This document shows positions 2,303-37,300 of a DNA stretch of 39,686 nucleotides, piece by piece. A program made the position numbers and the translations under genes. Each line of letters begins with the position of its first letter. Positions within the stretch are counted from its first letter, which is position 1. Under the pieces are notes generated by a model. That model ran no database searches, had not been told where the DNA came from, and saw nothing but the letters and a program-made list of their open reading frames with translations. The DNA is from an uncultured Anaerolineaceae bacterium (GTDB lineage: Bacteria; Chloroflexota; Anaerolineae; Anaerolineales; Villigracilaceae), in the NCBI GenBank assembly GCA_964608885.1, contig CAZSPX010000001.1:21343-61028 (forward strand), given 5' to 3'.

Positions 2303-3927
<1,625 letters not shown>

Positions 3928-3928
<1 letters not shown>

Positions 3929-5703
3929 CAGGCAGCCTCCCCGGGGTTCGCCTCACGGCTGGCCTGGAGGGCAAGGTCAATAAAGAGGGCCGCGGTCCAG
4001 CCGAAGGCCGGCGCTGAGCGAGCCGGGGGGACGCCCGTCTCTGCACCGTAGTATTCGTAGGTGGAAGGCTGGGACATGATCATGTTGAGGGTAGCGGCGC
4101 GAAGCTCACGGGCGAGTTCCTTTTTGCGGACGACGTTCAGGGCCTCGATAAAGAAGTAATTGATATTTGCCCAAACCGGACCGCGCCACATAGTTTCCGG
4201 GTCGAAGGCGCGATCATCGCGCGCCACAGTGGGCAGCATGGGACTGCCCCAGAATTTCCGTTTGTTCGTGAGCTGGGCGAGCAGACGCTTTGTTATGCGC
4301 GCAGGAAGCCTGCCTGTCCAGAGAGGCAGCAAGTTCATCGGTGTGATGACAGGGATGGGCTCGCCGTTATGCATGGCTCGAAACACGCCTGCGCCCTCAT
4401 CCCAGAGGCGTTCCAACATGCGCTGGACAAGCATCTCCGCGCCCTGTTTCCAGAGGCCGGCTTCAGACCTGAGGCGCAGAGTTCGGGCGATGCGTTCCAG
4501 GGAGCGCATCGAAAGATACAAATAGGTGTTCAGGTCCGGCGCCTCAGCTGGCAGCCCGTGATCCCATAAAGGACTGTCATCCAGGCCGGAGGAGTAGGGG
4601 TGGAAGTATTGTGCCAGACCATTGTGGTCCGGATCATTTTGTTGAAGCCACCAGGTATTCAACCTGGCGAGGGCCGGATAGATTTCCCTCAGAAAGCCGT
4701 TATCCGGGGCTACCTCGTGGATCTTCAGGGCAGCCCAGGCCAGGATCGGCGGCTTGGTCACCTTGCCAGGGATTGGATGATTCAACTCGAAGAGGGCGGC
4801 TTCATCGAAGATGGCGTCCGGGAGCATCCCATCGGGCTGCTGCAGCATGAGAAAGGCGCGGATCTGGTCACGCGCCAGTTGGGGATCCACGTGCCGGAGT
4901 GCAATGGCATGCAGGGCATTATCCCAGAGCCACAACCCGATATAGGAGGCCTTGGAGGGAGCCAGGGATTCAAATTGTATGCAGCCTCGCGGGCTGACCA
5001 TATTATTGCCCATGACCCACCATGCGTAGGCGTACTTTTCCGCATATTCCTCCGAGACGGGTGGAACCGGTGAAAACCACGCCTTCCAGCGCTCCAGGGC
5101 CTGCTTTTGCATTTCAGAGAAAGCCGGGATGATCTCCGGAAGCCCCGGCGCCTCGCCGATCTTGAGCAGGATGCTCCTGTCCAAACCCGGCTCGAGGAGG
5201 AGCTCAATGACTGCGCCGCTCGCATCCGGGGTGATCTCGGTCCGAAGGGTGCCCGCATTGGAGCCGTAGACCACGCTGCGGACCGGGTCGCAATCCTGGC
5301 CGGGGCGAAAATGCTGGTGATTCACATGGAAGCGTATGCCGGCCGAGCCACGGGGCGGAAGACCGATGGCGAGGGTGTCCTCGCCGGCAAAGACCAGCTT
5401 GAACTTTCCGAGCCGGGTCTGAAAAATCAAGATCTCCGGTGAAGCATCGGACTCGAAAGGGAGCGGCTGGCCGCTCTGGTCTATGAACTGAAGAGACTGG
5501 ATGAAAGGCGGCCGGTTCAGGTAGGCCTCGGGATGCGGGTCCAGAGCCGTCAACCGTTCTCCCAGGCGGATCTGCAGGCTGCTGCGGCCAGGGGCCTGTT
5601 GCAGAACCAGCCGCGAACCGCGATCACTGTATGGAACGCGCGTAAGGTCGATCTGGCCGCGCAGCAGATCCAGATAATCAGGGCTATTCCGGGTATCCTG
5701 CAT
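3928..5703 (-). CDS. GH63-like / trehalase-like (alpha/alpha)6-barrel glycoside hydrolase (possible glucosyl- or mannosylglycerate-type hydrolase)
   Basis: Motifs include [27 protein letters not shown] and [17 protein letters not shown], preceded by an N-terminal beta-sandwich-like region. I chose the ATG at 5703 ([11 protein letters not shown]). The track start at 5769 is a TTG that overlaps the upstream permease by 56 nt. Confidence 0.7.
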
Positions 5704-5713
5704 TATCGAGCTA

Positions 5714-6898
5714 TCAACCTTTGACCGCACCTGCCAGCATACCGCGGACAAAGTAACGCTGGAAGCCAAAGAAGACCAGCATGGGCAGGATCATGGAGAG
5801 GAACGCTGCGGCAGTCAAAAGCTGCCAGCCAGCCCCGTGCGAAGTGACCATGTTGCTGATCTGGTAGGTCATTACCGGGTTGTTGCCTCCCAGGAAGACC
5901 AGGGCGACCAGCAGGTCGTTCCATACCCACAGGAACTGGAAGATTCCCAGGGAGGCGATGGCCGGCATCGCGAGAGGGATGACCAGGTTGCGGAAGATGG
6001 TCCAGTGTGAAGCGCCGTCTATATAGGCGGCCTCGAACAGGTCGCTGGGCAGGGAGCCCAGGAAATTCCGCATCAGATAGATGGCATAGGGCAGGCCGAA
6101 GCCGGTGTGGAACAGCCAGACGCCCAGGAAGGTTCCGTTCAGCCCCACGGCGGCATAGAAGCGGGAGATCGGGACCAGGGTCATCTGGAGGGGCACAACC
6201 TGGAGCCCAACGAGGATCGCGAAGAGCAAATAGCGTCCTTTAAAATGGAGCCAGGAGAAGGCATATCCCGCGAAGGCCGCGAACAGGATCGGGAGGATGG
6301 TGGCAGGGATGGTGACCAGCAGGCTGTTGATGAAGGCGCGGCCCATTCCGCGCGGATTCAGAAAATCTCGTGCAGTGCAGCTCAAGTCCAGGGATTGGGT
6401 GCCATCTGCACAGTCCTGGGCGTAGGTGCGGGTGCCGCGGTAGCCCACCAGCGCGTCCACATAATTACTCACGGTGAAGCGGGCGCCTCCCTGCGCCGAA
6501 GCGGGATCTTTCAGGTAGGCGGCAATGTCTGCGGCTTCCTGCGGGCTGGGGAGCGGGATATCGCCCATGTGAGGCTGGCCATTGATGGGTTTCTTAAGCA
6601 TGGCCAGTAACTGCAGAGAGCGTGGGTATTTTCCGGAAATCTCAGGATTGCTGAGGTCCGCGTTGGGAAGGGCACGCCCGTCATCGCCATGGCAGGAAGA
6701 GCAGAAAGTTGCGTAGGGGGAGGTGGCCTTTGCCGGGGCGAAAACAGTCCACCATCCGGTGGCGTTGATATCCTGGATGGGCCGGAGGGAGGTCACCAGA
6801 AGACCCACCGTCGGGATCACCCAGACCAGGAGGGTGAAGATGATGATGACGTGGACAGGGAGCTGGCTAAAGAACTTGTTGATGCGATCGCGGTTCAT
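5714..6898 (-). CDS. Carbohydrate ABC transporter permease (MalG-type) with an inserted cytochrome c-like CxxCH domain in its first extracytoplasmic loop
   Basis: 394 aa from the ATG at 6898 (MNRDRINKFF...), which forms an ATGA overlap with the stop of the upstream permease. EAA-type loop FEAAYIDGASHWTIFRNLVIPLAMP. Insert: ATFCSSCHGDDG ... GQPHMGD ... SPQEAADIAAYLK. The upstream 93 codons of the track ORF (His/Arg/Gly-rich) overlap the preceding gene and were discarded. Confidence 0.85.
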   Translation of the reverse strand: MNRDRINKFFSQLPVHVIIIFTLLVWVIPTVGLLVTSLRPIQDINATGWWTVFAPAKATSPYATFCSSCHGDDGRALPNADLSNPEISGKYPRSLQLLAMLKKPINGQPHMGDIPLPSPQEAADIAAYLKDPASAQGGARFTVSNYVDALVGYRGTRTYAQDCADGTQSLDLSCTARDFLNPRGMGRAFINSLLVTIPATILPILFAAFAGYAFSWLHFKGRYLLFAILVGLQVVPLQMTLVPISRFYAAVGLNGTFLGVWLFHTGFGLPYAIYLMRNFLGSLPSDLFEAAYIDGASHWTIFRNLVIPLAMPAIASLGIFQFLWVWNDLLVALVFLGGNNPVMTYQISNMVTSHGAGWQLLTAAAFLSMILPMLVFFGFQRYFVRGMLAGAVKG

Positions 6899-7857
6899 CG
6901 GGTCTCCTCCTGCGCGATGAAGCGCTTGATGTTTAAGTAGACGAAGGGGATGATGACAACCACCAGGATGACGGCCACGGCGGTGCCCCGGCCCACGTTG
7001 AAGTTCTTGTACATCTCGGTGTACATACGGTTGGCGATCACATCGGTACCGTAGTTTCCACCGGTCATCACATACACAATATCGAAGAGTTTTAGCACAT
7101 TGATGACCATGGTGGTGATCACGACGAGGATGGTGGGCATGATGATCGGCACCATGATCTTCCAGAAGGTGGTCCACTCTGTGGCGCCATCCACACGGGC
7201 GGCTTCCAGGATCTCATCGGGGACCGCTTTCAAGGCCGCCGAGAGGATAGTCATGCAGAAACCGGTCCACATCCAGACGCCCACCACAATGAGAGCAAAG
7301 GTGTTCACCACGGGCGTGGACATCCATGAGACGGGCTTTCCGCCGAGGGCTGTGATCATGGAGTTCAGCAGACCGATTTGGACCTGGGAGGTACCGTAGT
7401 CGTAGACGAATTTCCAGATGATGCCGGCGCCGACAAAGGAGATGGCCATGGGCATGAAGATGATCGCCTTGGCCAAAGCCTCATATTTGACCCGGTCCGC
7501 CAACACGGCAAAGGCCAGGCCAATCGAGACGGTGCCCGCGGTCATGAAGATGATCCATTTCAGATTGTTGCCGAAGGAGGAGCTCCAGAACGAGCTCCAG
7601 AGGGTCCCTATGTTTCGGGCGTCGATCTCATCTGTCAGTGCATGGCGGTAGTTCTCGAAGGCTCCCCAGCAGGGCTGCCCCGTTGTACAAGTGGAAGCCG
7701 CCGGGGCTGTACCGTTCTTGTTGCTGAAGCTCAAACCTATGGTGTTGATCATGGGATAAACGATGAAGAAAGACATCACCACCAGGGCAGGAAGGAGATA
7801 CAGCCAGGGCGCCAGCCGCCCCTGTTTCATGATCTTGGGAACATTCGTCGCGGCCAT
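6895..7857 (-). CDS. Carbohydrate ABC transporter permease (MalF-type)
   Basis: 320 aa from the ATG at 7857 (MAATNVPKIMKQGRLAPWLYLLPALVVMSFFIVYP), preceded by a GAGGAG RBS. EAA loop LEAARVDGATEWTTFWKIMVPIIMP. There are multiple TM segments. Confidence 0.88.
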   Translation of the reverse strand: MAATNVPKIMKQGRLAPWLYLLPALVVMSFFIVYPMINTIGLSFSNKNGTAPAASTCTTGQPCWGAFENYRHALTDEIDARNIGTLWSSFWSSSFGNNLKWIIFMTAGTVSIGLAFAVLADRVKYEALAKAIIFMPMAISFVGAGIIWKFVYDYGTSQVQIGLLNSMITALGGKPVSWMSTPVVNTFALIVVGVWMWTGFCMTILSAALKAVPDEILEAARVDGATEWTTFWKIMVPIIMPTILVVITTMVINVLKLFDIVYVMTGGNYGTDVIANRMYTEMYKNFNVGRGTAVAVILVVVIIPFVYLNIKRFIAQEETR

Positions 7858-7870
7858 GTGCTTCTCCTCA

Positions 7871-7912
7871 TAAGCAAGACCGGGGACGCCTTGTTCGGGC
7901 GTCCCCGGCAAA
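7871..7912 (-). terminator. Strong intra-operon stem-loop between the binding-protein gene and the first permease gene (partial terminator / mRNA stabiliser candidate)
   Basis: A perfect 11-bp GC-rich stem, CCGGGGACGCC (7880-7890) / GGCGTCCCCGG (7898-7908), with a 7-nt loop. On the minus-strand transcript it is followed by UCUUGCUUAU. Confidence 0.5.
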
Positions 7913-7922
7913 ACGAGACAGG

Positions 7923-9287
7923 TTATTTCGCGAGGGCTTCCTTCTGGGCAGCTGCCACAGGTGCAAGTGCAGCAGCAAGATCGCCGCCATTGAGATAGTC
8001 CACAATGGCTTTCCATTCGGCAGAGCCGAAGCCGCCGGGGATCGTATCACCGAGGTCGGGAGTGAAACCCTGGGTGGCGTAGAAGGCTTCGGCAGTCTTC
8101 ATCAAGGCAGGATCGGTGAAGTTACCCTCAGCGCCCTTGTTGGGGGAGAGGCCGAAATTGGCCTTGGCCCAGTTGGCACCGCCTTCAGACGATGCCAGGT
8201 AGGTAACAAGCGCCTTGACGGCGGGCTTGTCGCTGAAGGCCATCATCCAATCGGAACCGCCCTGCAGGCCCTTGGCGCCCGGGACGACGAAGAAGTCATA
8301 ATCGGTGCCGTATTTGAGATCCGGGAACTGTTTGGCGATCTCAGCGCCTGCAAAACCGGATTGCTTGACCATCATGGCTTCCGGTGGGTCGGCAAAAGGT
8401 TTGTAGATGGCTTGCAGGAAGGCAGTGGAGAGTGTGCCTTCTGCGCCGCCTACCGTGTACTTCGGATCCTTCGCCCATTTTCCATAGGTCTCGTAGGCCT
8501 GCTGGACGCCGGCATCATCATAGGCGATGCTTCCATCGATCAGGCCTTTGACATAATCCGGTCCCTGCTGGACAAGGAGAATGTCCTGTATGAAGTCCGA
8601 ACCGGTCCAGCCTGTGGCATCACCGGATTCAAGACCCATGGACCAGGGAACATTCCCATCAGCGACCATTTTCTCGACCAGGGCATCCAGCTCATCCCAG
8701 GTAGTGGGGACGGTGTAGCCGAGAGCCTCGAAGTTGACCGGGCTGTACCAGATGATGGTTTTGACATCGGACTTGACAGGCAGGCCGAGCCATTTTCCAT
8801 CCACCATGCCGGGGTCAATGGCTCCGGGGATATAGGCATCCTTGCTGGCGCCAAGCTCGTCCATCGCGAACAGTTTGTCCTTGTACTGGTTGAGCTGGGT
8901 CACATTCCAGAAGGCAAGATCCGGGGGAGTGCCAGCCTGGACCCGGGTATCCAGCAGAGCCTGGTCGCGGGTGGACTCAGGTTTTAGCACGATACCGCAG
9001 GCATCCACGAGGGGCTGAAGGATCTTGTTGAGGCTTTCCTCTTCCACGCCTGACCACTGGTAGATCATGCTGATTTCATCACCTGAGGCAGCGCCCATAC
9101 AATCGATGGCGGCAGCAGGCGGTTCGGTGGCGGCCTCGGTGGGAGCCTCAGTGGGCGCCATGGTGGGCGCTTCTGTGGCGGCCGGGGGTTCGGTCATCAC
9201 CGGGGTCGGCGTGGCCTGAGTGCCGCAGGCTGCAAGCAGGATGGCAAACAGCGAAACCAGTGTCAGCAACTTGCTAATTCTTGACAT
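7923..9287 (-). CDS. Sugar ABC transporter substrate-binding lipoprotein
   Basis: Start is the ATG at 9287 (MSRISKLLTLVSLFAILLAAC, lipobox LAAC) with a GGAGG RBS. A Pro/Thr/Ala/Glu-rich tether follows, then a family-1 extracellular solute-binding fold (IYQWSG..., WYSPVNF, GGSDWMMAF). Confidence 0.88.
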   Translation of the reverse strand: MSRISKLLTLVSLFAILLAACGTQATPTPVMTEPPAATEAPTMAPTEAPTEAATEPPAAAIDCMGAASGDEISMIYQWSGVEEESLNKILQPLVDACGIVLKPESTRDQALLDTRVQAGTPPDLAFWNVTQLNQYKDKLFAMDELGASKDAYIPGAIDPGMVDGKWLGLPVKSDVKTIIWYSPVNFEALGYTVPTTWDELDALVEKMVADGNVPWSMGLESGDATGWTGSDFIQDILLVQQGPDYVKGLIDGSIAYDDAGVQQAYETYGKWAKDPKYTVGGAEGTLSTAFLQAIYKPFADPPEAMMVKQSGFAGAEIAKQFPDLKYGTDYDFFVVPGAKGLQGGSDWMMAFSDKPAVKALVTYLASSEGGANWAKANFGLSPNKGAEGNFTDPALMKTAEAFYATQGFTPDLGDTIPGGFGSAEWKAIVDYLNGGDLAAALAPVAAAQKEALAK

Positions 9288-9390
9288 TTTCTCGTCCTCC
9301 GAAGAATTGGTTGGAAACAACACGGTCGAACCTGGACAAGTCAGGGTTGAAAGCGATCACCTCCTTTCAGGCCGATAAAGAAGTCTCCAA

Positions 9391-10431
9391 TCAGGACGGA
9401 ACAGCGGATAGGCCGCTGGAGACTCTCACGATCAATTCCGATTCGACCAGCACATCATGCTCGTCCAAGCCCTCTCCGCGGATCAGACGGATCAGGCGCT
9501 CGCTGGCGGCCCAGCCAAGACCGAAAGCAGGCAGGCGGATGGTGGTCAGCGGGGGGTCAAGGTATTCCGCCAGGGGGATATCGTCGAACCCAACCACAGC
9601 GATATCCTGCGGTATGCCCAAACCGGCTTTCTTGATCGCCAGCAAGGCGCCCACGGCGACCACATCACTGGCGACGAAGACCGCGTCTGGACGGGGATTG
9701 CCATCCAGCAGTTCCTGCATGGCATGAAAGCCGCTGGCAGGGGTAAAGGATCCTTCCTGGATGAGGGCAGGCTCCATTTGGATGCAGGCCTTTTCCAGGG
9801 CGGCGATGTACCCGCTGCGGCGCTGCTGGGCCGAGGTATAAGAAAGGGGAGCATTGGTGATCAGGGCGATCCGCCGTTTTCCGCCCTCGATGAGATGGTT
9901 GACGGCCGCCTCGGCGCCGGCTTTGGCATCGACATCCACAAAAGGGATATCCGTACCCGGGAGCTGGCCCATGAGCATGACGGGAACCCCCTCCTGGTGA
10001 AGGCGCAAAATTTCCCGATCGCTCTGCCGCGGACCGGAGAGAAGGATCCCATCCACATGGTTCTCTTTGATAAGCCGTGTGTATCCAGTGGAGTCATCCG
10101 GCGAGACGGGATTCAACAACACGTGAAACCCCTGCTTCATGGCAGCCTGCTCCACCCCCAGGATCACCCGGGGAAGGAAGGCATCCACAAAAACCTGTTC
10201 GCGGGACTGGCTGAGGATGAGACCGAGAGTATTCGACTTCCCGCTCACAAGCCTGCGGGCGGCGGAATTGGGGAAATAGTTGAGGGATTGTGCGGCCTCA
10301 CGCACACGCTGGCGGGTGGCCTCGCTGATGCTGATCCCTGGGACCTCGTTCAGGACAAACGAGACCGTCGAGCGGGAGACCCCGGCCTCTTTCGCGACAT
10401 CCAGACTGGTGGCACGCTTGGTGGGTGGCAT
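9391..10431 (-). CDS. LacI-family transcriptional regulator
   Basis: 346 aa. The N-terminal HTH is TSLDVAKEAGVSRSTVSFVLN, followed by a periplasmic-binding-protein-like sugar-binding core (VDGILL, VVGFDDIPLAEY). Confidence 0.92.
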   Translation of the reverse strand: MPPTKRATSLDVAKEAGVSRSTVSFVLNEVPGISISEATRQRVREAAQSLNYFPNSAARRLVSGKSNTLGLILSQSREQVFVDAFLPRVILGVEQAAMKQGFHVLLNPVSPDDSTGYTRLIKENHVDGILLSGPRQSDREILRLHQEGVPVMLMGQLPGTDIPFVDVDAKAGAEAAVNHLIEGGKRRIALITNAPLSYTSAQQRRSGYIAALEKACIQMEPALIQEGSFTPASGFHAMQELLDGNPRPDAVFVASDVVAVGALLAIKKAGLGIPQDIAVVGFDDIPLAEYLDPPLTTIRLPAFGLGWAASERLIRLIRGEGLDEHDVLVESELIVRVSSGLSAVPS

Positions 10432-10445
10432 CTTTATAGATAGGG

Positions 10446-10461
10446 ACTAACACGTGTTAGT
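10446..10461. promoter_or_regulatory. Perfect 16-bp palindrome (candidate operator) just upstream of the LacI-family gene
   Basis: ACTAACAC|GTGTTAGT is centred on CG, 15-30 nt upstream of the lacI-family ATG (10431). It is flanked by direct ATAGGGA repeats at 10440-10446 and 10471-10477, and minus-strand TATACT / TATAAA boxes lie nearby. Confidence 0.4.
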
Positions 10462-10610
10462 AAAATCAGTATAGGGAATCCACACCCCCTTGTCAAGTAC
10501 CAATTTTTATCTTTTCCTGATCCGGGCCGCCCGTAACTCAGAACAAATATTCGGGTTATGTAGACTAATTGATCGGTATGCACCGAGCGCGATTGGAACA
10601 GGAGGCTCTT

Positions 10611-11024
10611 ATGGATATGGCATCGGTCAACTGGATGGCGGTTCTGGCGTGTGTTATTTTTGCAATGGTAAGTGGTTCAGTCTGGTATCACCCCAAGGTC
10701 TTCTTCCCGGCCTGGTGGAAGGGGATCGGGAAAACGGAAGCTGACCGTGCGGCGATGAGCCCGGGACCGATGATCTGGGTACTCACAATCATCGCGGCAC
10801 TGGTGGAGGCGGCGGGCGTTTCATTCCTGATCAAAGCCATGGGGGCGGATTCGCTGGCGTCGGGCGCGGCGGCGGGCTTTATGCTCTGGCTGGGATTGAT
10901 CGCGCCGACGTACCTGCTGAACAACCTTTTCGCGGGGCACGGGTGGAAGGTGTGGGCGATCGAGACAGGGAACCACCTCTTGAGTTTGATGGTGTTCGGG
11001 GCGATCCTGGCTGCCTGGAAGTAA
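10611..11024 (+). CDS. DUF1761-family small membrane protein
   Basis: MDMASVNWMAVLACVIFAMVSGSVWYHPKVFFPAWWKGIG... has four hydrophobic segments. GGAGG lies 5 nt upstream of the ATG at 10611. The track start at 10569 is probably too long. Confidence 0.7.
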   Translation: MDMASVNWMAVLACVIFAMVSGSVWYHPKVFFPAWWKGIGKTEADRAAMSPGPMIWVLTIIAALVEAAGVSFLIKAMGADSLASGAAAGFMLWLGLIAPTYLLNNLFAGHGWKVWAIETGNHLLSLMVFGAILAAWK

Positions 11025-16559: not shown

Positions 16560-17237
16560 ATGACCGGCCTGTTTCGTTTTCTCGCTTCGTATGAAGCGCT
16601 AATCTACATTGTCCTTGCGATCGGGGGCCTGTTTGCGTTTCGATGGCTTTTCACTTCCTGGCAGGAATGGCAGCAGTCGGTCTTCAGACTGGAGCGCGAG
16701 TTTTCCCTGCGCAGGCTCAGCCAGGCGCTGGCGGTCAGCCTGGTGGTGGTAGCGCTGCTTTGTACGGAGTTTGTGGTGGCTTCCTTTATCATTCCCTCCC
16801 TTCCCGCACAGGTGTTTATCCCTTCGCCTACCCTGGACCTGCTGGCCCTGCCTCCGGGCACCCTCTCCCCTGAGCTGATGACGCGCGTCGCCCAGGCCAC
16901 CCAGCCGGCCGTCTCGGCGAACATGCAGGGATGCATTCCCGGCGAGCTGATGATCACCTCCCCGATCCCCGGCGCGGAGGTGAAAGGCAAGATCGATATA
17001 GCCGGGACGGTCAATATTCCGGATTTTGGTTTTTATAAATATGAGGTTGCGCTGCGCGGCAGCGAAACCTGGGCAACGATCGCGGCCGACACCTCGGTTG
17101 TCAAGGACGGCACCCTGGGAAGTTGGGATACATCGGCTCTGACGCCGGGAGATTACCAACTGCGGATCGTTGCCACCGACAATCAGGGAGAATCCCTGCC
17201 TCCCTGCATCATCCCCATTCGAGTACTGGCTCCCTGA
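16560..17237 (+). CDS. Hypothetical membrane protein with a C-terminal beta-sandwich (Ig-like) domain
   Basis: 225 aa. Two hydrophobic segments (LIYIVLAIGGLFAF; ALAVSLVVVALLCTEFVVASFII), a Pro-rich linker and a C-terminal ~100 aa (ITSPIPGAEVKGKIDIAGTV...GDYQLRIVATDNQG). No family recognised. Confidence 0.6.
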   Translation: MTGLFRFLASYEALIYIVLAIGGLFAFRWLFTSWQEWQQSVFRLEREFSLRRLSQALAVSLVVVALLCTEFVVASFIIPSLPAQVFIPSPTLDLLALPPGTLSPELMTRVAQATQPAVSANMQGCIPGELMITSPIPGAEVKGKIDIAGTVNIPDFGFYKYEVALRGSETWATIAADTSVVKDGTLGSWDTSALTPGDYQLRIVATDNQGESLPPCIIPIRVLAP

Positions 17238-17239
17238 CC

Positions 17240-17779
17240 ATGATAGATTTCAAGATCCGACCCGCCCTTGCCTCCGACCTGTCCCGCCTAATGGCGCTCG
17301 ACCACAGCATTCGCAGCGACCACGTCTGGCAGCTTGAGCTGCGCACGGACGCAAGCCAGGTGCTGGCGACCTTCCGGGAGGTGCGTCTGCCACGCCCGAT
17401 CACCCTGGAATACCCGCATGATCCCTTTGCCCTGGCGGACGAATGGAAGCGGATGTCCATGATGTACACAGCCATCAGCGGACCGGATGCGGTGGGATAC
17501 ATCCTGCTGACGGAACAGCCGGAGTTATCGCTGGTCCGTGTCGCTGACCTGGTGGTCGCGCCGCAGGTCCGCCGGCAGGGGGTGGGAAGCGCTCTTCTGG
17601 CGGCTGCCCAGGATTGGGGGCAGGGACATAACAGCCGGAGAATGATGCTGGAAATGCAGGCCAAGAACCTGCCCGCCATCCGCCTGGCGCAGAAACATGG
17701 TTACGAATTCTGCGGGTATAATGACCATTACTATCTCAGTCAGGACGTTGCCCTTTTCTTTGCGAGGGCCTTGAAATAA
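17240..17779 (+). CDS. GNAT-family N-acetyltransferase
   Basis: Start is the ATG at 17240 (MIDFKIRPALASDLSRL). VADLVVAPQVRRQGVGSALLAAA...AIRLAQKHGYEFCG. Confidence 0.8.
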   Translation: MIDFKIRPALASDLSRLMALDHSIRSDHVWQLELRTDASQVLATFREVRLPRPITLEYPHDPFALADEWKRMSMMYTAISGPDAVGYILLTEQPELSLVRVADLVVAPQVRRQGVGSALLAAAQDWGQGHNSRRMMLEMQAKNLPAIRLAQKHGYEFCGYNDHYYLSQDVALFFARALK

Positions 17780-17800
17780 CTTAACGTACTGGAAGGCTGC

Positions 17801-19717
17801 ATGGTTACCGGTTGGTCAGACAACTTACTCGGGGGGATCCGAACACTCAACCAGATCCTGACGGCAGGAATCGCCATCACGGCTTTTTCACTATTCCTGT
17901 ACGCGCTTTCATTCAATTTACGAGACCGGGTGGCCCGGTCTTTTGCCATCATCCTTCTGTGCGTGGTGGTTGTGTTCACCACGGAAGCCCTGCAGGATGA
18001 TTCGATCCCGGCGCGGGGGCTGGATATACTTCTGCGCCTGCAGTGGCTGGGGATCATCTACCTGCCGGCCGCCTATCTGCATCTCTCGGATGCGGTCCTT
18101 GTCACTGCCGGGCGTCCCTCGCGCGGCCGTCGCCGGCTGGCTGTTCGGGGTATCTACCTTATCTCGACCCTTTTCCTGGTCCTGATGGCCTCAGGGTACC
18201 TTCTGGGACCGCTGGTCCCAAATGGCGTGCCCGCGCCCCATCTCCAGCGCACCCTGTGGACAGAAATATTCACGCTATTTTACGTATTCACGATCGCCTG
18301 GGCCGGGGTGAATTTCCTGCGAGCATACCGGCGGATGCTGACGCGTTCCGGTCAGCGGCGAATGCTGTACCTGATGGCGGGAGCGACTGCTCCGGCCCTG
18401 GGTTCCTACCCGTACCTGATGTTCGGCTCGAGCCTTGCGGCCCAGTTTCCCCATCTTTTCTGGGGAGTTGCCCTGGTCATCAATATTCTGGTGGCGGGGC
18501 TTGTGGTCATCATGGCGTATGCCGTAGCCTTTTTCGGGGTTTCATGGCCGGACCGGGTCGTCAAAAGCCGACTGTTCAAATGGATCATGCGCGGGCCCGT
18601 CACGGCCTCGGCCGCTCTGGGTATGATGACGATTGTACGGCGCGCGGGGGAGGTCTTTGGGGGCATTCCATATAATGCCTTTGTGCCCCTGGTCGTGGTG
18701 GCGACCGTGCTGCTCCTGGAGCACTTGATCACCCTGGTTGCTCCGATCTGGGAGCGCTGGCTTTTTTATGGCCGGGACAGGACAGAACTGCGATTCCTGC
18801 AAAATGTGGAGGAGCGCCTCCTCACGGGAAGCGACCTGAACCAATTCCTGGAGGCTGTCCTGGCAGCGGTCCGTGACCACCTCCAGTCTCCCTCGGCCTT
18901 TGTGGCTGCCCTGGACGAAGATGAGCTATCAATGATCGTGCTTGCCGGAAAGCGCAGCATGATCAGCCAACCGGACCTGCCGCAGGTAATGGAGCGCGTG
19001 AACGGCAATGGGCCGCGCCATGAATTTATATGGGGAGATTTCTGGGTGCTCCCGCTCTATCAGCGCAGGCGACTGGAGATGGACCGCGATGAACAGCCAC
19101 CCCTGCTTGGCCTGCTGGGCGTGGCACGCCGGGGAGGAGAAGACCTGGAACATGACCAGCGGGAGGCGTTATGGCTCCTGGCGGACCGGGCTGCCCTGGC
19201 GCTTGAAGACCGGCAGTTACAGCAGCGGGTCTTCCGCTCCCTGGAAGACCTTCAACCCCAGGTGGAGATGATCCAGAGGCTGCGAGCGGCAGGCCGCTAC
19301 GATGTAAGCGCCAACCTGCTATCTGAGCCGCTGCCCCAGGAGAGTGATCTTGCCAACTGGGTGAAGGATGCTCTTACCCACTACTGGGGCGGCCCCAAGC
19401 TCACGGCCAGTCCCTTGATGCGCCTTCAGGTGGTGCAGGAACTGACCGATGATCATGAAGGCAATACGGCCAACGCGCTGCGTGCACTCCTGCGCAAGGC
19501 AGTAGATCAAGTCAAGCCGGAGGGGGACCGGCGCTTCACCACGGAATGGATTCTCTACAATATACTTGAAATGAAATTCATCGAAGGGCGCAAGGTGCGC
19601 GAAGTGGCTTCACGCCTCGCTATGTCTGAGGCCGACCTGTACCGCAAGCAGCGAGTGGCGGTGGAGGCAGTGGCACACGCGATCCTGGAGATGGAATCTG
19701 AGATACAGGAACGATAG
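17801..19717 (+). CDS. Polytopic membrane protein fused to a GAF-like domain and a C-terminal sigma-70-region-4-like HTH (putative membrane-embedded one-component regulator)
   Basis: 638 aa. About 7-8 hydrophobic helices in aa 15-320. A GAF-like region at aa ~335-480 (LLGLLGVARRGG...LADRAALALEDRQL). The C-terminus is ILYNILEMKFIEGRKVREVASRLAMSEADLYRKQRVAVEAVAHAIL. GGAAGG RBS. Confidence 0.7.
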   Translation: MVTGWSDNLLGGIRTLNQILTAGIAITAFSLFLYALSFNLRDRVARSFAIILLCVVVVFTTEALQDDSIPARGLDILLRLQWLGIIYLPAAYLHLSDAVLVTAGRPSRGRRRLAVRGIYLISTLFLVLMASGYLLGPLVPNGVPAPHLQRTLWTEIFTLFYVFTIAWAGVNFLRAYRRMLTRSGQRRMLYLMAGATAPALGSYPYLMFGSSLAAQFPHLFWGVALVINILVAGLVVIMAYAVAFFGVSWPDRVVKSRLFKWIMRGPVTASAALGMMTIVRRAGEVFGGIPYNAFVPLVVVATVLLLEHLITLVAPIWERWLFYGRDRTELRFLQNVEERLLTGSDLNQFLEAVLAAVRDHLQSPSAFVAALDEDELSMIVLAGKRSMISQPDLPQVMERVNGNGPRHEFIWGDFWVLPLYQRRRLEMDRDEQPPLLGLLGVARRGGEDLEHDQREALWLLADRAALALEDRQLQQRVFRSLEDLQPQVEMIQRLRAAGRYDVSANLLSEPLPQESDLANWVKDALTHYWGGPKLTASPLMRLQVVQELTDDHEGNTANALRALLRKAVDQVKPEGDRRFTTEWILYNILEMKFIEGRKVREVASRLAMSEADLYRKQRVAVEAVAHAILEMESEIQER

Positions 19718-19730
19718 GGAAGGAGCAAAT

Positions 19731-20678
19731 ATGGCTGGTCAACGCAACAAGAATCAAGAAAATCCCATGCCTCTCCCGGATGAAGGATGGTGGGCGTCAG
19801 TGTTGGCGGAAGAAGGGCGCAATCTTCCACCGCCGCCCGCGCGCGTCCAAAAGCAGGAGCTGAAGGCCGAGGAAGCTCCCCGGCCATCCGCAGATTGGGC
19901 GCAGGTGAAGGACCTGTATTCACGCGACCAGATCGTGAACCTGCGCGTTACAGGGCATAACCGCGGCGGCCTGCTGGTGGAAGGCGAGGGCATGTTCGGC
20001 TTTGTGCCTTTTTCACACCTGATCGACCTGGCGGGGAAACCGGAAGTGGTAGACCGCGACAGCTCGCTGGAAACTTACCTGGGGCGCAACCTGAACCTTA
20101 AGGTGATAGAGTGCGTTCCGGAGGATGGCCGGATCGTTTTCTCGGAGCGTGCCGCCCTGGCCGAACCCGGGCAGCGGGCCCTGCTCTTCAATGCCATCCA
20201 GCCCGGGCAATGCATCACCGGGCAGGTGACCAATATCACCGATTTCGGCGTCTTCGTTGACCTGGGCGGTGTGGAAGGGTTGATCCACATCTCAGAACTC
20301 TCGTGGGGCCGGGTGATCCATCCCAACCAGATCGTTAAGCTGAACCAGAAGGTGGAGGTCATGGTGTTGGAGCTGGCACCCGAGCGCTGCCGGGTAGCTC
20401 TCAGCTTGAAGCGCCTGGCGCCCAACCCGTGGGAAAAAGCGGATACCCTTTTCGGGGTGGGTTCCGTCCTGCCTGCCGTAGTCACCAGCGTTGTCTCTTA
20501 TGGCGCATTTGCCCGCCTGGAGGCCGGTGTTGAAGGGTTGATCCATGCATCGGAGATCCCCCTGGAGCCTGGCCAGCCGGTCAAGGAAGCGCTGAGGGAA
20601 GGGCAGGCCGTGACCGTTCGCGTCCTGCACGTCGACGCACCCCAGCAGCGCATGGGCCTGAGCATGAAGATCGATTGA
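19731..20678 (+). CDS. S1 RNA-binding domain protein (three S1 repeats; ribosomal protein S1-like)
   Basis: 315 aa. Repeats: VTGHNRGGLLVEGEGMFGFVPFSHL; GQVTNITDFGVFVDLGGVEGLIHISELS; VVTSVVSYGAFARLEAGVEGLIHASEI. GGAAGGAG RBS. Confidence 0.85.
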   Translation: MAGQRNKNQENPMPLPDEGWWASVLAEEGRNLPPPPARVQKQELKAEEAPRPSADWAQVKDLYSRDQIVNLRVTGHNRGGLLVEGEGMFGFVPFSHLIDLAGKPEVVDRDSSLETYLGRNLNLKVIECVPEDGRIVFSERAALAEPGQRALLFNAIQPGQCITGQVTNITDFGVFVDLGGVEGLIHISELSWGRVIHPNQIVKLNQKVEVMVLELAPERCRVALSLKRLAPNPWEKADTLFGVGSVLPAVVTSVVSYGAFARLEAGVEGLIHASEIPLEPGQPVKEALREGQAVTVRVLHVDAPQQRMGLSMKID

Positions 20679-24472: not shown

Positions 24473-25408
24473 ATGATCGAAACGTGTGAACTGGGAAAGC
24501 AATTCAATGATTTCTGGGCTGTGCAGGACCTGAGCCTGGAGGTCAAGCCCGGCCAGATCCTTGCGCTATTGGGACAGAACGGCGCTGGCAAGACCACCAC
24601 GGTCCGCATGCTGACCGCGCTCCTACGGCCTACGCGCGGCTGGGCCAGAGTGGCAGGCCATGATGTCGCCAGCCACGGGAATGCAGTCCGTGCCTCTGTG
24701 GGTGTGCTGACCGAGCAGCAGGGACTCTATGTGCGGATGAACGCCCGGGAATATCTCGAGTTTTTCGCACAGACCTATTCGATGAGCCTCCAGGCGCAGA
24801 AAAACCGGAGCAATTACCTGCTTCAATACTTTGGTTTATCCGAGGTGGCGGACCGGCGCATCGGCGAATACTCCAAGGGAATGAAACAGAAGCTGGCCCT
24901 GGCGCGGGCATTAATGCACGAGCCGCCGGTCCTGCTCCTGGATGAGCCGACCTCTGCCATGGACCCGGAATCGGCACGATTGGTACGGGACGAGATCGCA
25001 AATCTCCGCTCCTCGCGGCGCGCGATCATCATCTGCACGCACAATCTGGCTGAGGCGGAAGCACTTGCAGATATAGTGGTGATCATCTACCGGGGGCGCA
25101 TTTTGCTTCAGGGTTCGCTTCGAGAGCTTAAAGACCGGGTGCTGGGGCCTGTGGAGTATGCGGCCCAACTTTCGAGGCACTGGGATGCCGGCGGGCTTTT
25201 CGTCCCGCCCGGTGTGGTCCTGGAGCAGATTGAACCGGACAGCCTCCGTTTTCGGATTGATGAGCCGAGCCTATCGAATCCACTCGTATTGGAAGCGCTT
25301 TCCAATGCCCATGCGCCGCTCCTGACCTTTCAAGAGATCCCGCGCAGCCTTGAGCAGGTGTATCTGAAGGTAATGGCCGAAGTCCAGGGAGGCGGGTATG
25401 CAATCTAG
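24473..25408 (+). CDS. ABC transporter ATP-binding protein (NatA/ABC-2 type)
   Basis: 311 aa. Walker A GQNGAGKTT, signature YSKGMKQKLALA, Walker B LLLDEPTSAMD. Confidence 0.92.
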   Translation: MIETCELGKQFNDFWAVQDLSLEVKPGQILALLGQNGAGKTTTVRMLTALLRPTRGWARVAGHDVASHGNAVRASVGVLTEQQGLYVRMNAREYLEFFAQTYSMSLQAQKNRSNYLLQYFGLSEVADRRIGEYSKGMKQKLALARALMHEPPVLLLDEPTSAMDPESARLVRDEIANLRSSRRAIIICTHNLAEAEALADIVVIIYRGRILLQGSLRELKDRVLGPVEYAAQLSRHWDAGGLFVPPGVVLEQIEPDSLRFRIDEPSLSNPLVLEALSNAHAPLLTFQEIPRSLEQVYLKVMAEVQGGGYAI

Positions 25409-31344: not shown

Positions 31345-34300
31345 TCATCCCTCGGCAGTCAGGTGCTCCTCATCCACCATTTTGAGGAACTCATTTGCGA
31401 TCTCTGGATCGAATCGGGTACCAATCTCACCCCGGATATAATCGATCACCTTTTCGCGCGGCCATGCCTTCCGGTACGGGCGGTCATAGAGCAGTGCATC
31501 CCACACATCCACCAGCGCAAATATCCGTGCTGACAGCGGGATCTCCTCGCCTTTGAGCCGGTTGGGATAGCCCTCCCCATCCCAGCGTTCGTGATGTGCA
31601 TAGGGGATGTCCACCGCGGGCCGCAGGTACGAGATCGGGTGGAGGAGATCATAGGCGTATTGCGGGTGCTTGCGCATTTCCACCCATTCCTGCTCGTCCA
31701 GCGGACCGGACTTCTTGAGAATATGGTCAGGGACCGCCATCTTGCCAATATCATGCAGAAGCACACCGCGGCGCATGCTCACCAGTTCTGTTTCAGGAAC
31801 TCTTAAGCGGCGCGCAAGGCGCAGGGTCAGATCCGTAACGCGGAGAGTGTGACCCTGGGTCTCACGATCACGAAGCTCCAGGGCTTTGCCCCAGCCCTCC
31901 AGGGTGGTGTCGTAGGCCAGGGACAGCTCCTGGTTGGAACGCTGAAGATTGTCAAAAAGCTGTGAGTTGTCGATTGCAATGGCTGCCTGGCCGGCCATAG
32001 TCTGGAAGAAGTCCAACCAATCTGCCTCGGGCGGAGGCGCCTGTCGGTAATAGACCTCCAGAATACCCTTGACCTGTCCCTTGCTGATAAGCGGCGTGGC
32101 GAAATATCTGATAAACCGTTCCTGGCGGGCAAGGTCCTTGCGGTGGAATTGAGGCTCACTACCCACATCCTCCACGCGGATCATCTTCCGCTCCAGCAGG
32201 GCTTCATCCAGTATCCTGCCGGAAGCCCGTAGATTGGTCTGGATCAGCGCGGCCTGCCGGAAACCCAGGCTGGCAATATGATCCAGAGCGCGCATTTCGG
32301 GGTTGTAGGAGAAGATCGCGGCAGCGTCGGCATGTAGTTGTGAAACGGTATGGTCGAGGAGGATGTTGAGGGTAACACGCAGATCAAAGCTGGAGGCAAT
32401 GGCCGTATCCACATCCCGGAGGGCTGTCAGGCGCTTGACCTGCCCCTCGCTCTGGTCAAAAAGCTGTGCGCGATGGATGGCGTTTCCGGATATCTCGGCA
32501 AGAGTGGTGAGCAGTTGTACCTGGGCGGGCTCAATCCTGCGCGGCCTCGGAACGGCCACGAACATGACACCGATCGTCTGGGAGGATGTGCTGATGGGGA
32601 TTCCCACGCCCGCCCAGCCGGTCTCAACTCCCTCTCCCAGGTCCTTCGCTGAGAGCGCATCACTGCCAAAATCATGGATGAGGAGGACCTGGCCGTTCCG
32701 GAAGATCTGCCCGGCAATGGACTGGTTGGACTGGATCTGTTTCAATCCGGCCTGGCTCAGCCAACCACTGGAGACCTTGCGGTCGAGCTGATTTGTCACT
32801 GGGTCATGCAGCCAGATCGAAGCTGCGTCCGTATCGATGACCTTCAGCACCTCCCGGAGGAGGACTGGAGGAACCTCATCGGGCCGGCTCAGGGCCCGCA
32901 GGGCAAAGGTAACCCGGCCCACCACCTCCAATTCCTCCATGCGCTTGCGCGTCTCCTGGTACAGGCGTGCGTTATCGATGGCCGCAGCGGCCTGATAGGC
33001 AAAGGTTCGTGCCAGGGCGGCCGACTTTTCGTCGAAGGTTCCCACCTCATAGCTATCCAGCGTGATATATCCCACCACCTCGCCGCGGGTCACGAGCGAG
33101 ACGCCCATCCAGCCACGTACGCTGTCTGCCGCAGCCCAGCGCTCAAAGCGGGAGTCGACCTGGGCATCGTACAGAATCACCGGCTCGTTGTTATTGGCGT
33201 CGATGGCCAGCAAAAGCTTGTTGTCTGAGGGGAAGGTCTGGTGCATCGCCTGTGTCTGGTTCGGCAGCCCCTGTGCGGCTGTGATGCGGACTTTGTCGCC
33301 TTCAAGAAGAAGGATCGAGCCGCTGTCGAACGGAACCACCTGCCTTAAGGCGGTAAGGATGGTCTCAAGCACCTGCTGCGGGTCCAGGGAGGATGTCACC
33401 GCGGAAGCGGCCAACCGGAGATTTTCTGCCTCCTCGCGGCGCTGCTGTTCCAGCTCGAATAGACGGGCATTCCCGATGGCGTTGGCGGCATTATTTGCGA
33501 CTGCCAGGGCCAATTCCTCGTCTTCCCGGGTGAAATGTCCGGGCTCGCTGCTATCCAGGGTTGCCATGCCGATCGTAGTATTGCGGACGAGGATGGGGAT
33601 GGCAAGCGTGGAGCGCAATTCAGAGATCCCCGGGATCCAGCGATAGCGATCATCCGTGAGCGTATCTTCGATCCGGACCGGTTTTCGGGTCTCGATGACC
33701 TCACGGTTGAGGGGAAAATCTTCCAACAGCAGGTTGTTGCCCCGGTGGAGAGTATCCGGGGGGAAACCGATGGCTGCCGAGATCCGAAGCCGGTCGCCTT
33801 TCAAGAGCTGGATGGAACCGGAATCGCAGGGAATAAGCTGGATGAGATGGCCGAGAATGGTCTGATTGACCTCGTCCAGATCGAGAGAAGAGGCGGCGAG
33901 GCGCATCATTTCGAGCATGGTTGCCTCGCGCAGGCGCAGTTTGTTCTCCGCTGCAAAGGAGCGGGCGTTCTGGATCGCCACGGCTGCCTGCTGCGCAAGG
34001 CTGCTCAGAAAGTTCAGTTCCGAAGGGCGGAATTCCTTGTCGGCTCCTGTTCGCCATACCACGACCAGGCCGGTCAATTGGTCCTTGTTCAATACCGGGA
34101 CACCCATGATATGCTCAGCCGGATTGGTCTCGGTCCCCTTGATGGTGATCGCGCGCGGGTCAGCCGGTGCATAGTTGACGATCTCGCCGGTCTTGCTCAG
34201 GGCGATCTGTCCGGCGATCCCCATCCCGAGGACTACAGGATCGTTCTTGATCTCCTCGGCGTCGGCGCCGATCACTGAGATGCCATGCAGCTGCCCATCT

Positions 34301-37300
34301 TTCTCGTCCATCATGTAAACGGCGCTGGTCTCCACGTCCAGCAGGTCTTTGGCGTACCAGGCAATACGCTCCAGAACCTGGTCCAACTGCAGCGTGGAGG
34401 AGACATCCCGGCCCACCTGGGCCACGGCTGCCGACTCCTGGGCGCGCTGTACCGTTTCCTGGAACAGGCGGCTCATCCCAATGGAAATGGAGGTCTGGTG
34501 GGCAATACTGATGAGGAAATTAAGCTCGGATTCGTTGAAGAGCCCATCGGCCCGAAGCCTCCAGGCGTTGATCGCACCGATGGACTGGCCCCGCAAGATC
34601 AGGGGGGATGACATCATGGTCTCGACTTCGCCATCTTCGTTGGGAGTGCCAGGGACGGTAATGGTGCGCGGGTCGCCGCGGGTATCGTTGACGATCTCCG
34701 ACTTCCCGGCAGCGATCACATTGCCGGTGATTCCGATCCCCACCTGGATTGTGTGCGAGATCAACTGGTCGCTATAGGTGCCTTTCGCGGAAACGATCTT
34801 GACGGTCTTGTTGTCATTCTGCACCAGATAGATCGCGACATGGCTGGCTTTCAGAAGCTCAAGTGTCCTTTGAGAGACCTTGTCCAGCAGATGCCCCATT
34901 TCCTGGGTGGTGGCGAATTCGTTCGCAATATCGGCCAGGGCTTCGATGATCCTGGTTCGCCGCCGCTCCTCCTGGAAGGTCCGGGCGTTGGCGATGGCAA
35001 TGCTCGCCTGGTTGGCAAAGATCTCTGCCAGGCGGATATGCTCCTCCGTATAGAAATTGGATTGAGAGTGGTCGATCGCCAGCATGCCCAGCAGATCGTC
35101 CCCCACCAATAAAGGTACGCCCAGCCAGGAATGAATATGGCTGTGCGGGCCATCCTGGAAGGGCTGGAACAGGTCGGGGGCATTCCCGAGACGCAGCGAC
35201 CGACGTTCTCGAATCACCCGGGTATTCGGATTGTCTCCTGGTACAGGGAATCGCATGCCGAGTACCCGGGAGGGGTCTTCCCAGCCTGCGCCCCCCACGA
35301 TCTCAAGGAATCCATTGTTCAGCAACTGGACAGAGGCTGTTCGATAGGGCACAACCTTGGCCAGTTGATCCAGAATATGTTGTATGGATTGTTCCTGGTC
35401 AAGGTCGGAGGCCATGGTGGCAAGCGATTCGCGCAAGGTCTCGGCTTCGCGCCGCCGCTGTTGCTCGGCATCAAACAAGTGAGCGTTCTGAATGGCAATG
35501 GCAGCCTGATTTGCAAAGGTCTGAACGAGGGAGGCCTGCTCCTGCGTGTAAAAGCCTTCCTTTTGATTGTACAGGTTGATAAACCCGATCAGTGTGTCCT
35601 GGGCAAACAGAGGGATTCCCATCCAGCCATGGAGCTGGTCCCTGTCTTTCATATCCGCAAAGTGATCATCTGACTGGATGTCGGGGATAAGGATCGGATC
35701 GCGAGATGTGCTGAGCTTCCATTTTTCACGATCAATGGAATATTGCGTTCCGACCGTTTCGGGGGCAAGATTTCGTCCTGCAGCCGTCCTGATAATATTC
35801 CCCTCGATAAGCTCTACGGACGCGATCTCGTATGGGGCAAAGGTCACGAGCAGGTCGAGCGTCGTGTTCAACAGGGTATCAAGGTCGAGGGAGCTCGTGA
35901 GAGCTGTGGTGGCTTCTCTCAGGCGGATGGCTTCACGCGCCCGGCGTGTCTCGGCCTCGAAGAGTTGGCTCTTCATCAGGGCGGTGGACAGCCCGCCTGC
36001 AATGGTATTGATCAAACGCTCATCGGCCTCGTCGAAAGCATCAGGCTGGCAGCTTTCGATGTTAATCACACCGACGACCTTATCTTCCGAGACCAGGGGG
36101 ACACACAGCTCGGAGCGTATGCCAGGCTGGACCTCCACGTATTCGGGCATGGTTCCAACCTCACCGCTGCGGAAGGCGCGGCCGCTGGAGATCACCACAC
36201 CTGCAACACCCGTGTCGATACCTGACTTCTGCATCAATTCGGCTTTTATCCCGCCCCGGTATGATCCGTGGGGTTGAAGCGATCCGGTGGGCTCATCGAT
36301 CAACAGAATACCGCAGTTGTCAGGCTTGAGGGTGTTGTAAATAATGTCTGTGATCGTAGTGATCAGTTCGTCACTATCCGTGAGATTCGCATTTGTAACC
36401 GCAGCAGAGTGCAGCATGGTCAATTCCATCAACTGGCGCGAAGCTGCGCTCGAAGCCGCTTCACGCTGGATGGCGCTGCTCAGGATGTTCGCAGCGGTGC
36501 GAAGCGTTTCCACCTCGTTCTGTGTCCAGACGCGTTCGCGAAGACAATCATCCAGTCCGATCAGCCCCCACCACTCCTCGCCCACCATGATCGGAACGAT
36601 GATAATGGAGAGGATATTCTCGCGCAGGAATTCGGCCTGCTCCCCGGGTAACAGTTGGCGGGTGATGGAAGATATGGGCTCACCTTTCGCCAGAAGCTCC
36701 CCCCAGCGCGAGAGTCCTTCCTCGGTCAGATCGAAATCCTTCAAAACTGGATCATCGATCATGGGCTGGATCCCGGCAGCGCACCATTCGAACAGCTGGG
36801 ATATTACGGCCCGGGGCCCTTCCCCGGCGGTTCTCTTGAAAATATATACCCGGCTGGCCTCGGCTGCCAGTCCAAGTTTTTCCAGAATGGATTGGATATT
36901 GGTGGTCCAATCGGCTGATTTCAGAAATTCATCTGCTGCAAAGGCGATGGAGCCCAGAATGGCTTCCCTCCGCTCCACATTTCCCCGGGCGATTTTCTGT
37001 TCTGTAATATCGTGGAACATGGCAAGGATGCACTGCTTGCCATTCAGATTGATAATCTCATAGAACGCAGAAACATCGAGAATCTCGCCGGATTTTCGGG
37101 AGAAAATATCCTCGATATTCCGGAGGGACCGCTCGCGGTCAAGCTGTTCCAGAAACACCCGGTGTTTCTCAACACTATTGGAGCCAATCTCGAGGACCGA
37201 ACGGCCCAGAAGTTCCTCAGGCAGATATCCGCTCATGGCCCAAAAGGCCGGATTGGCTTCGATCAACCGGCCTTCTTCCCAGGTGGTAATACATGTCGGG

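Follow-up and report, generated by a model that had tools for sequence, protein, structure and literature searches.

A class-I cytochrome c module in the predicted extracytoplasmic loop P1 of an AglG/MalG-type sugar ABC permease of Anaerolineae

The stretch of DNA analysed here (the window) comprises 39,686 nucleotides of a contig from an uncultured Anaerolineaceae bacterium (CAZSPX010000001.1, positions 21,343 to 61,028), and it carries on its minus strand a sugar-uptake operon whose second permease, a subunit of an ATP-binding cassette (ABC) importer, bears a class-I cytochrome c module in its first, predicted extracytoplasmic loop (P1). A preliminary description of the window, made from its letters, had already pointed to this module, and translation confirmed its statement that the second permease of the sugar locus (5714..6898) is 394 amino acids (aa) long. 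All aa numbers below are those of this permease, and the parts of it that concern the module are the following.

5714..6898, minus strand: AglG/MalG-type ABC permease with the cytochrome c module, 394 aa (PF00528 at aa 204-387, E 4e-17)
aa 15-38 and aa 185-393 of the permease: predicted transmembrane helix 1 (TM1) and TM2-6, with the helices taken from an AlphaFold (AF2) model
6347..6784, minus strand: predicted first extracytoplasmic loop P1, aa 39-184, between TM1 and TM2
6506..6730, minus strand: class-I cytochrome c module, aa 57-131, about 75 aa (PF13442 and PF00034 matches)
6689..6703, minus strand: putative haem attachment motif C66-S-S-C69-H70, two thioether cysteines and the proximal histidine (translation checked)
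6566..6571, minus strand: His110-Met111, His110 being the probable distal ligand and Met111 the candidate of the preliminary description
6377..6412, minus strand: Cys163...Cys174 pair, CADGTQSLDLSC, aa 163-174, in the non-cytochrome part of P1

The CxxCH codons were found at 6703..6689, where they had been described, and encode CSSCH at aa 66-70; GQPHMGD (aa 107-113) and the amphipathic helix SPQEAADIAAYLK (aa 118-130) follow as reported. The permease contains four cysteines in total, all within P1, and its own composition gives a chance expectation of 0.0007 CxxCH motifs. When the proposed Pfam check was carried out, both families scored above their gathering scores on the excised loop, if narrowly: PF13442 reached 30.2-31.5 bits there and 27.9 bits on the whole permease (aa 58-129) against a gathering score of 27, and PF00034, whose threshold is 21.3, gave 23-25 bits on the excised loop and 20.0 bits on the full protein. 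PF13442 was matched independently (E<=0.01) by 59 of 62 diverse loops of the family, which are 28-75% identical to the loop of the window, and PF00034 by 43 of the 62. Among PDB entries, a profile of the family loops matched CcoP, from cbb3 oxidase, at E 2e-6 and cytochrome c6 at E 2e-3; the plant leucine-rich-repeat receptors heading the single-sequence PDB search were rejected as spurious matches, arising from an 'LSNPEISGKYP' stretch, and were gone in the profile search. The loop-only AF2 model had a mean pLDDT (predicted local distance difference test) of 83.9, with 87-94 across the module, and its helices lie where the class-I fold expects them. With this model as the Foldseek query, ranks 1-47 of 54 were all mono-haem class-I cytochromes or cytochrome domains, including c6, OmcF, KustC0563, the c domain of cd1 nitrite reductase, ActE and PsbV (rank 44), at E >=0.17 and target-normalised TM-scores <=0.58, and the modelled fold is consistent with class I, short of proof by structure comparison.

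The best profile and fold matches of the module, the CcoP domains, cytochrome c6 and Geobacter OmcF, resemble it only at a borderline level in sequence, and share with it the length of about 75 residues, the N-terminal helix, in which an aromatic residue precedes CxxCH by four positions, a distal ligand some 40 residues past the motif and the C-terminal amphipathic helix ending in ...YL. Unlike these proteins, which are soluble or singly anchored, the module is internal to a polytopic transporter subunit, and its canonical G-x-M-P methionine is replaced by a conserved histidine. Taken together, as judged from the profiles, the invariant CxxCH, the fold model and the topology, the permease carries a genuine class-I mono-haem c-type cytochrome domain, in line with the preliminary description, and we infer that haem is bound covalently through Cys66 and Cys69 with His70 as the proximal ligand.

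The rest of the protein resembles MalG and the AglG/ThuG permeases of the CUT1 family, with which the system shares the six-helix BPD_transp_1 core, a MalF-like partner, a lipoprotein binding protein and sugar-catabolic genes. The NCBIfam model MalG (PRK10998) aligned aa 189-394 to MalG 85-296, while the MalG, UgpE and GlcU equivalogs aligned over aa 184-394, each below its own cut-off; the naming as AglG / K10234 comes only from automatic annotation by the Joint Genome Institute. The MalG-type assignment made earlier was upheld by PF00528 and the MalG alignment, but the accompanying statement that such permeases are usually about 280 aa with a short first loop does not hold here, since insert-less members of this subfamily measure 316-343 aa with a P1 of about 85 aa. 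These AglG-class relatives share the rest of P1, including its cysteine pair, whereas the module-bearing P1 is larger by a net addition of about 60 residues that forms the cytochrome. We know of no described MalG/AglG-type permease with a cofactor-binding domain in a periplasmic loop.

The BPD_transp_1 core, the six-TM pattern and the charge bias fit a type I importer subunit with both termini inside. TM1 is strongly hydrophobic, TM2 begins at about aa 185, and the density of lysine and arginine is 0.09 in P1 compared with 0.21 in the N-terminal and 0.19 in the C-terminal tail. The cytochrome-bearing loop is therefore predicted to lie outside the membrane, from its position between TM1 and TM2, the charged termini and the MalG alignment of the core, as had been claimed, and it corresponds to MalG P1 because the remainder of the permease aligns to MalG as given above.

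Conservation was examined in the 120 closest homologues (76-100% identical, 392-397 aa, the named ones mostly from Anaerolineales or Chloroflexota metagenome-assembled genomes), in a diverse set of 140 obtained by a second search seeded with the distant member P0134 and reaching about 53% full-length identity, and in a one-genome-per-species scan that found a relative in 122 genomes, the best 80 of which were analysed as loci and provided 76 full-length proteins from species-representative genomes. CxxCH was present in all insert-bearing homologues (120/120, 140/140 and 80/80, and 271/271 in the loop-length comparison below), with one CxxCH each in the 120 closest. Cys66, Cys69, His70 and Gly71 were kept in 120/120, 140/140 and 76/76 proteins, respectively, and the aromatic residue that precedes the first cysteine by four positions was as invariant as Cys66, Cys69, His70 and the distal histidine, over at least 271 sequences. 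For the loop-length comparison, the residues between the GWW and NYxD motifs were counted in 339 full-length homologues: 271 had 90-109 residues and all of these carried CxxCH, while the other 68 had 10-39 residues and none carried it. No long loop without CxxCH and no decayed form was found among the 339. The ratio of nonsynonymous to synonymous substitution rates (dN/dS), a rough guide here with near-saturated synonymous sites, was about 0.19 for the module, 0.18 for TM1, 0.17 for the rest of the loop and 0.04 for the TM core. By these comparisons the module is under purifying selection since its insertion.

The distal side of the haem site looks different from what had been expected, namely that both CxxCH and Met111 would be conserved among the carriers of the insert. 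This was so for CxxCH, but Met111 was kept in only 35 of the 140 diverse homologues (otherwise isoleucine, valine or leucine), compared with 114/120 closest homologues and 66/76 species-genome proteins, and it was rejected as the axial ligand of the family. A canonical distal methionine about 40 residues past CxxCH was not found at the family level; His110 sits there instead, kept in 120/120 closest, 138/140 diverse and 76/76 species-genome proteins, and the axial methionine of CcoP (GQMP) aligns one column ahead of it. Histidine as the distal ligand is a minority variant of class-I cytochromes. Since the usual methionine is replaced by histidine throughout the family, His/His ligation is more likely, and the alignments indicate that the distal ligand is most likely His110 in a low-spin bis-His haem. 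The permease of the window belongs to a P-H-M-G subclade, in which, by its sequence, ligation by methionine in this very protein, or an exchange of histidine and methionine, is possible.

The permease stands in an operon with the following further genes and motif.

9391..10431, minus strand: LacI-family regulator at the operon head (Pfam LacI and Peripla_BP_3; syntenic in most loci)
7923..9287, minus strand: lipoprotein substrate-binding protein (lipobox LLAAC; operon position conserved)
6895..7857, minus strand: partner permease, AglF/MalF-type (PF00528, E 3e-19)
7669..7689, minus strand: Cx5C motif CTTGQPC of the partner permease
3928..5706, minus strand: GH63/MGH1-like glycoside hydrolase, downstream of the cytochrome-bearing permease (PF22422, E 2e-71; in about half of the loci)
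2303..3928, minus strand: GH13 TreS-type maltose alpha-D-glucosyltransferase (trehalose synthase; TIGR02456, 841 bits, cut-off 678; syntenic in most loci)

The order LacI regulator, binding protein, permease 1, permease 2 with the module, GH63-like hydrolase where present and GH13 enzyme recurred in nearly all loci that were long enough. The ATG of the cytochrome-bearing permease overlaps the stop codon of the upstream partner permease (ATGA), which suggests that the two are translationally coupled. The GH63-like protein had weak NCBIfam matches to alpha-glucosidase and glucosylglycerate hydrolase. Because the TreS and GH63-like genes are adjacent, the likely substrates are trehalose, maltose or related alpha-glucosides, and it is these that the transporter probably imports. 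No gene for an ATP-binding subunit was found in the operon (2303-10431), and the sole ABC ATPase of the window (24473-25408) pairs with an ABC-2 type permease, which implies a shared, unlinked ATPase.

An insert-less permease, P0407, stands in the same operon of LacI regulator, binding protein, two permeases and GH13 enzyme; the binding protein of this system aligns closely with that of the window throughout, and permease 1 likewise has the Cx5C motif. As such orthologous operons are otherwise the same, the module would be an accessory rather than part of the core transport machinery, and evidently, from this comparison, it is not needed for basic transport. A feature of the binding protein specific to insert-bearing systems was considered and rejected, as both kinds align closely from end to end. 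The lipobox of the binding protein itself leads into a linker, about 45 residues long and rich in proline, threonine, alanine and glutamate. The protein gave no real Pfam match at E<=1 (three were spurious, none to a solute-binding family), while weak matches to family-1 sugar-binding proteins were obtained in the PDB (AcbH, 7e-10) and the L081 and L083 orthologues were without a precomputed Pfam match; it appears by these matches to be a divergent family-1 sugar-binding protein. At five loci (L052, L053, L064, L065 and L079) the permeases are preceded by two binding-protein genes in tandem, each about 71-78% identical to that of the window. At the locus of Aggregatilinea lenta (L083) no LacI gene was seen upstream, and the permease is followed by a 394-aa membrane protein without a Pfam match (9437-10621) and not by the GH63 and GH13 genes.

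The preliminary description had also remarked on an extra cysteine pair in the same loop, CADGTQSLDLSC, and on CTTGQPC (7689..7669) in the loop of the partner permease. Both exist, but the link to the module that had been drawn from them did not survive the comparison with insert-less systems. The Cys163...Cys174 pair was kept in 138/140 diverse homologues and 76/76 species-genome proteins and is also present in insert-less relatives, and the CxxGxxC of the partner permease was kept in the 76 loci covering the region and in the insert-less system L081. Since both pairs occur in insert-less relatives, they are older than the insert and not part of the haem feature; on this distribution they are ancestral to the subfamily and unrelated to haem, and a functional connection between the haem and the cysteine pairs was rejected.

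We also considered whether the module binds haem at all. It might be a cytochrome-derived relic, or remain unmatured, or its cysteines and histidines might serve a metal site or a disulfide; the marginal profile and Foldseek scores would fit this, as would the other extracytoplasmic cysteine pairs of the transporter, which resemble plain disulfides, and the lack of maturation genes in the window and the 80 loci, where the tryptophan-rich (WWD) motif of CcsA/CcmF was not detected either. Against this, exactly the haem-binding residues, together with the aromatic residue ahead of CxxCH, are invariant in at least 271 sequences with no decayed forms, and carrier genomes encode other c-type cytochromes, so that we regard a haem-free module as highly improbable. 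Such cytochromes were found on the contigs of the fusion gene at 3 of the 80 loci (L005, L006 and L070), where L005, L070 and L006 encode eight- and seven-haem cytochromes, a five-haem c7-like protein and a di-haem class-I cytochrome. The L005 contig, from a groundwater Chloroflexi metagenome-assembled genome, carries two adjacent multi-haem genes at 16937-20452 (8 and 7 CxxCH; Cytochrome_cB and MtrC-like matches), about 7 kb downstream of the fusion operon. Further, genes for a bc complex and alternative complex III have been reported from Aggregatilineales, the order of the carrier A. lenta (PMC8067394).

The module appears to be confined to one phylum. The 80 best genomes were all Chloroflexota except two bins, and the carriers belong mainly to Anaerolineales and in smaller number to Thermoflexales, Ardenticatenales and Phototrophicaceae; the cultured carrier is Aggregatilinea lenta (P0291, 405 aa). 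The two exceptions (L008 and L031), labelled Syntrophothermus and Bacteroidota and both from PRJNA951521, have a typical Anaerolineae operon at 75-76% identity and are probably mis-binned contigs. A wide taxonomic spread was accordingly rejected, every named genome match being Chloroflexota apart from these two bins of a single project. A search of 1.84 billion cluster representatives gave only 16 clusters at E<=1e-30, mostly fragments of the module-bearing permease family. In a neighbour-joining tree of the shared parts, which is crude, the insert-bearing proteins formed one clade (91 of its 92 tips), and the insert-less proteins, likewise from Anaerolineae, formed a grade outside it; the remaining tip, P0475, which is without the insert, is a probable secondary loss as placed by this tree. 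From this pattern, Anaerolineae (Chloroflexota) apparently acquired the module a single time, when it would have entered an AglG-type permease already present in the LacI-controlled alpha-glucoside operon of an ancestor within the class.

The nearest relatives of the module outside permeases are proteins with 6-15 tandem PF13442 domains, all with the canonical G-x-M-P. P0156, P0167, P0168, P0174, P0176 and P0179 are such tandem Cytochrome_CBB3 relatives, 600-1160 aa long and with G-x-M-P in each domain. Two shorter sequences were also noted. The fragment P0150 (128 aa) has a permease-type TM1 and GWWT followed by a different cytochrome c domain with a GNMPKF methionine ligand, and could represent a second fusion that arose independently, or else an artefact of assembly. 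P0140 (208 aa) combines a signal-peptide-like N-terminus, a module 63% identical to that of the permease and then unrelated sequence, and is either a free-standing copy of the module or a chimeric assembly.

That these relatives are multi-domain electron-transfer cytochromes raises the question of whether the permease anchors a small electron-carrying cytochrome on the outside of the cells, which are probably single-membrane filaments, with a respiratory complex or an extracellular acceptor as the target, or whether the haem exchanges electrons with the nearby cysteine pairs. As general knowledge, bacteria without an outer membrane must tether their cytochromes c, and multi-haem cytochromes do lie 7 kb downstream in one locus (L005). 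Yet in practically all genomes the gene is part of a sugar operon under LacI control, which would be odd for a respiratory carrier; the methionine of the relatives is replaced by histidine, which usually means a lower potential, unsuited to donation to an oxidase; cytochrome neighbours occur at only 3/80 loci; and the cysteine pairs predate the insert. Electron transfer as the role of the module is thus improbable.

The position of the module within the importer points to the binding protein. MalG P1 is periplasmic and cross-links to MalE throughout the transport cycle, its accessibility shifts with ATP, and both P1 and P3 matter for MalE docking (PMC6906923). An inserted docking domain also has a precedent in the Ig-like P2 of MalF, which like the module is a folded extra domain in an outward loop of a type I importer, at the docking face (PMC6906923); it differs in lying in the other subunit and another loop, with another fold and no cofactor. 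The module could accordingly be a rigid addition to P1 that recruits or positions the binding protein, with the haem as a folding or structural cofactor without a redox role. Selection acts on the whole module, beyond its motif (dN/dS), and no redox partner is conserved in the operon, both of which suit this explanation, as does PsbV among the Foldseek neighbours. PsbV (cytochrome c550 of photosystem II) is class-I-like with His/His ligation, sits on the outer face of a membrane complex and is apparently structural; it differs from the module as a separate photosystem subunit, and the likeness is one of general fold in a weak neighbour. The insert-less orthologues, whose binding protein is very similar and whose operon is the same, give no sign that such a docking domain is needed, and a covalent haem would be a costly scaffold; the joint strict retention of CxxCH and His110 fits either a structural or a redox role. 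We consider a structural docking domain unlikely, although almost as likely as the redox-responsive role that we put first.

Because the module sits in a loop that in the maltose transporter contacts the binding protein, is dispensable for transport and is strictly retained, a modulatory role suggests itself, and on this analysis it may be a built-in redox-responsive switch acting on binding-protein docking or gating, a possibility to which we give somewhat less than an even chance. In this scheme, the oxidation state of the haem, or the loss of its distal ligand, would alter the conformation of P1, the change in P1 would alter binding-protein docking or the gating of the pore, and sugar uptake would thereby follow the redox state of the surroundings or of respiration. 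There is a precedent in c-type haem sensor domains outside the cytoplasm: those of the Geobacter chemoreceptors GSU0582 and GSU0935 and the haem-c Cache domain of a 2026 preprint are outward domains of membrane proteins with a covalent haem c, and they sense the redox state or small ligands (PMC3460858, PMC8396549, PMC12889525). They differ in that their haem is held by PAS/Cache folds on signalling proteins, whereas here a class-I fold is part of a transporter with no signalling output domain. In its most specific form, the permease would be the first ABC importer membrane subunit with its own redox cofactor, a bis-His haem in the docking loop that switches trehalose/maltose uptake according to the redox state outside, for instance through release of the distal histidine or a His/Met swap in the PHMG subclade, and it would do so directly and post-translationally, with no signalling cascade; in this full form we hold the proposal to be doubtful.

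Several points weigh against the switch and the haem domain on which it would depend. Class-I domains with bis-His haem may be purely structural, as PsbV, or electron carriers. The insert-less transporters presumably work without the module, and no obvious feature of the binding protein co-varies with the insert over whole-length alignments of insert-bearing and insert-less systems. No cytochrome c maturation gene (Ccs/Ccm) was found in the window or the 80 genome loci. Where the module lies with respect to the docking site is inferred from MalG alone, as the full-length AF2 model, made with the 120 close homologues, was poor (pLDDT 57) and was not used for domain placement. Finally, the single-sequence Pfam pass is narrow, just over threshold, and the Foldseek scores are weak.

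Both parts of this protein are well known, and it is their combination that was not found in the literature: full-text searches gave no description of a cytochrome c-ABC permease fusion, which agrees with the remark in the preliminary description that no functional account of one was known. Precomputed domain tables do show the fusion in a minority of members, while most are annotated "ABC transporter permease" or "alpha-glucoside transport system permease", with cytochrome scores below the Pfam threshold, and a family counting at least 271 sequence clusters and 80 or more species-level genomes is in this way invisible in annotation. The known regulation of ABC importers acts through cytoplasmic ATPase domains (MalK, MetN, ModC, OpuA) or through the binding protein. 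A cofactor domain that the membrane subunit carries in an outward loop would give the ABC superfamily a new principle, whether of regulation or of structure, and the finding is of good interest to specialists in transporters and haem proteins. Anaerolineae are abundant in sludge, sediments and groundwater, and a redox switch of this kind, if it exists, would link their carbohydrate scavenging to redox conditions; with A. lenta in culture, the hypothesis is directly testable.

Elsewhere in the window, at 31345-39480 on the minus strand, lies a gene for a protein of 2711 aa in which about 10 GAF and 6 PAS domains are joined by an HD_5 domain (HD-GYP-type) at the C-terminus; by this domain content it is an unusually large cytoplasmic signalling protein.

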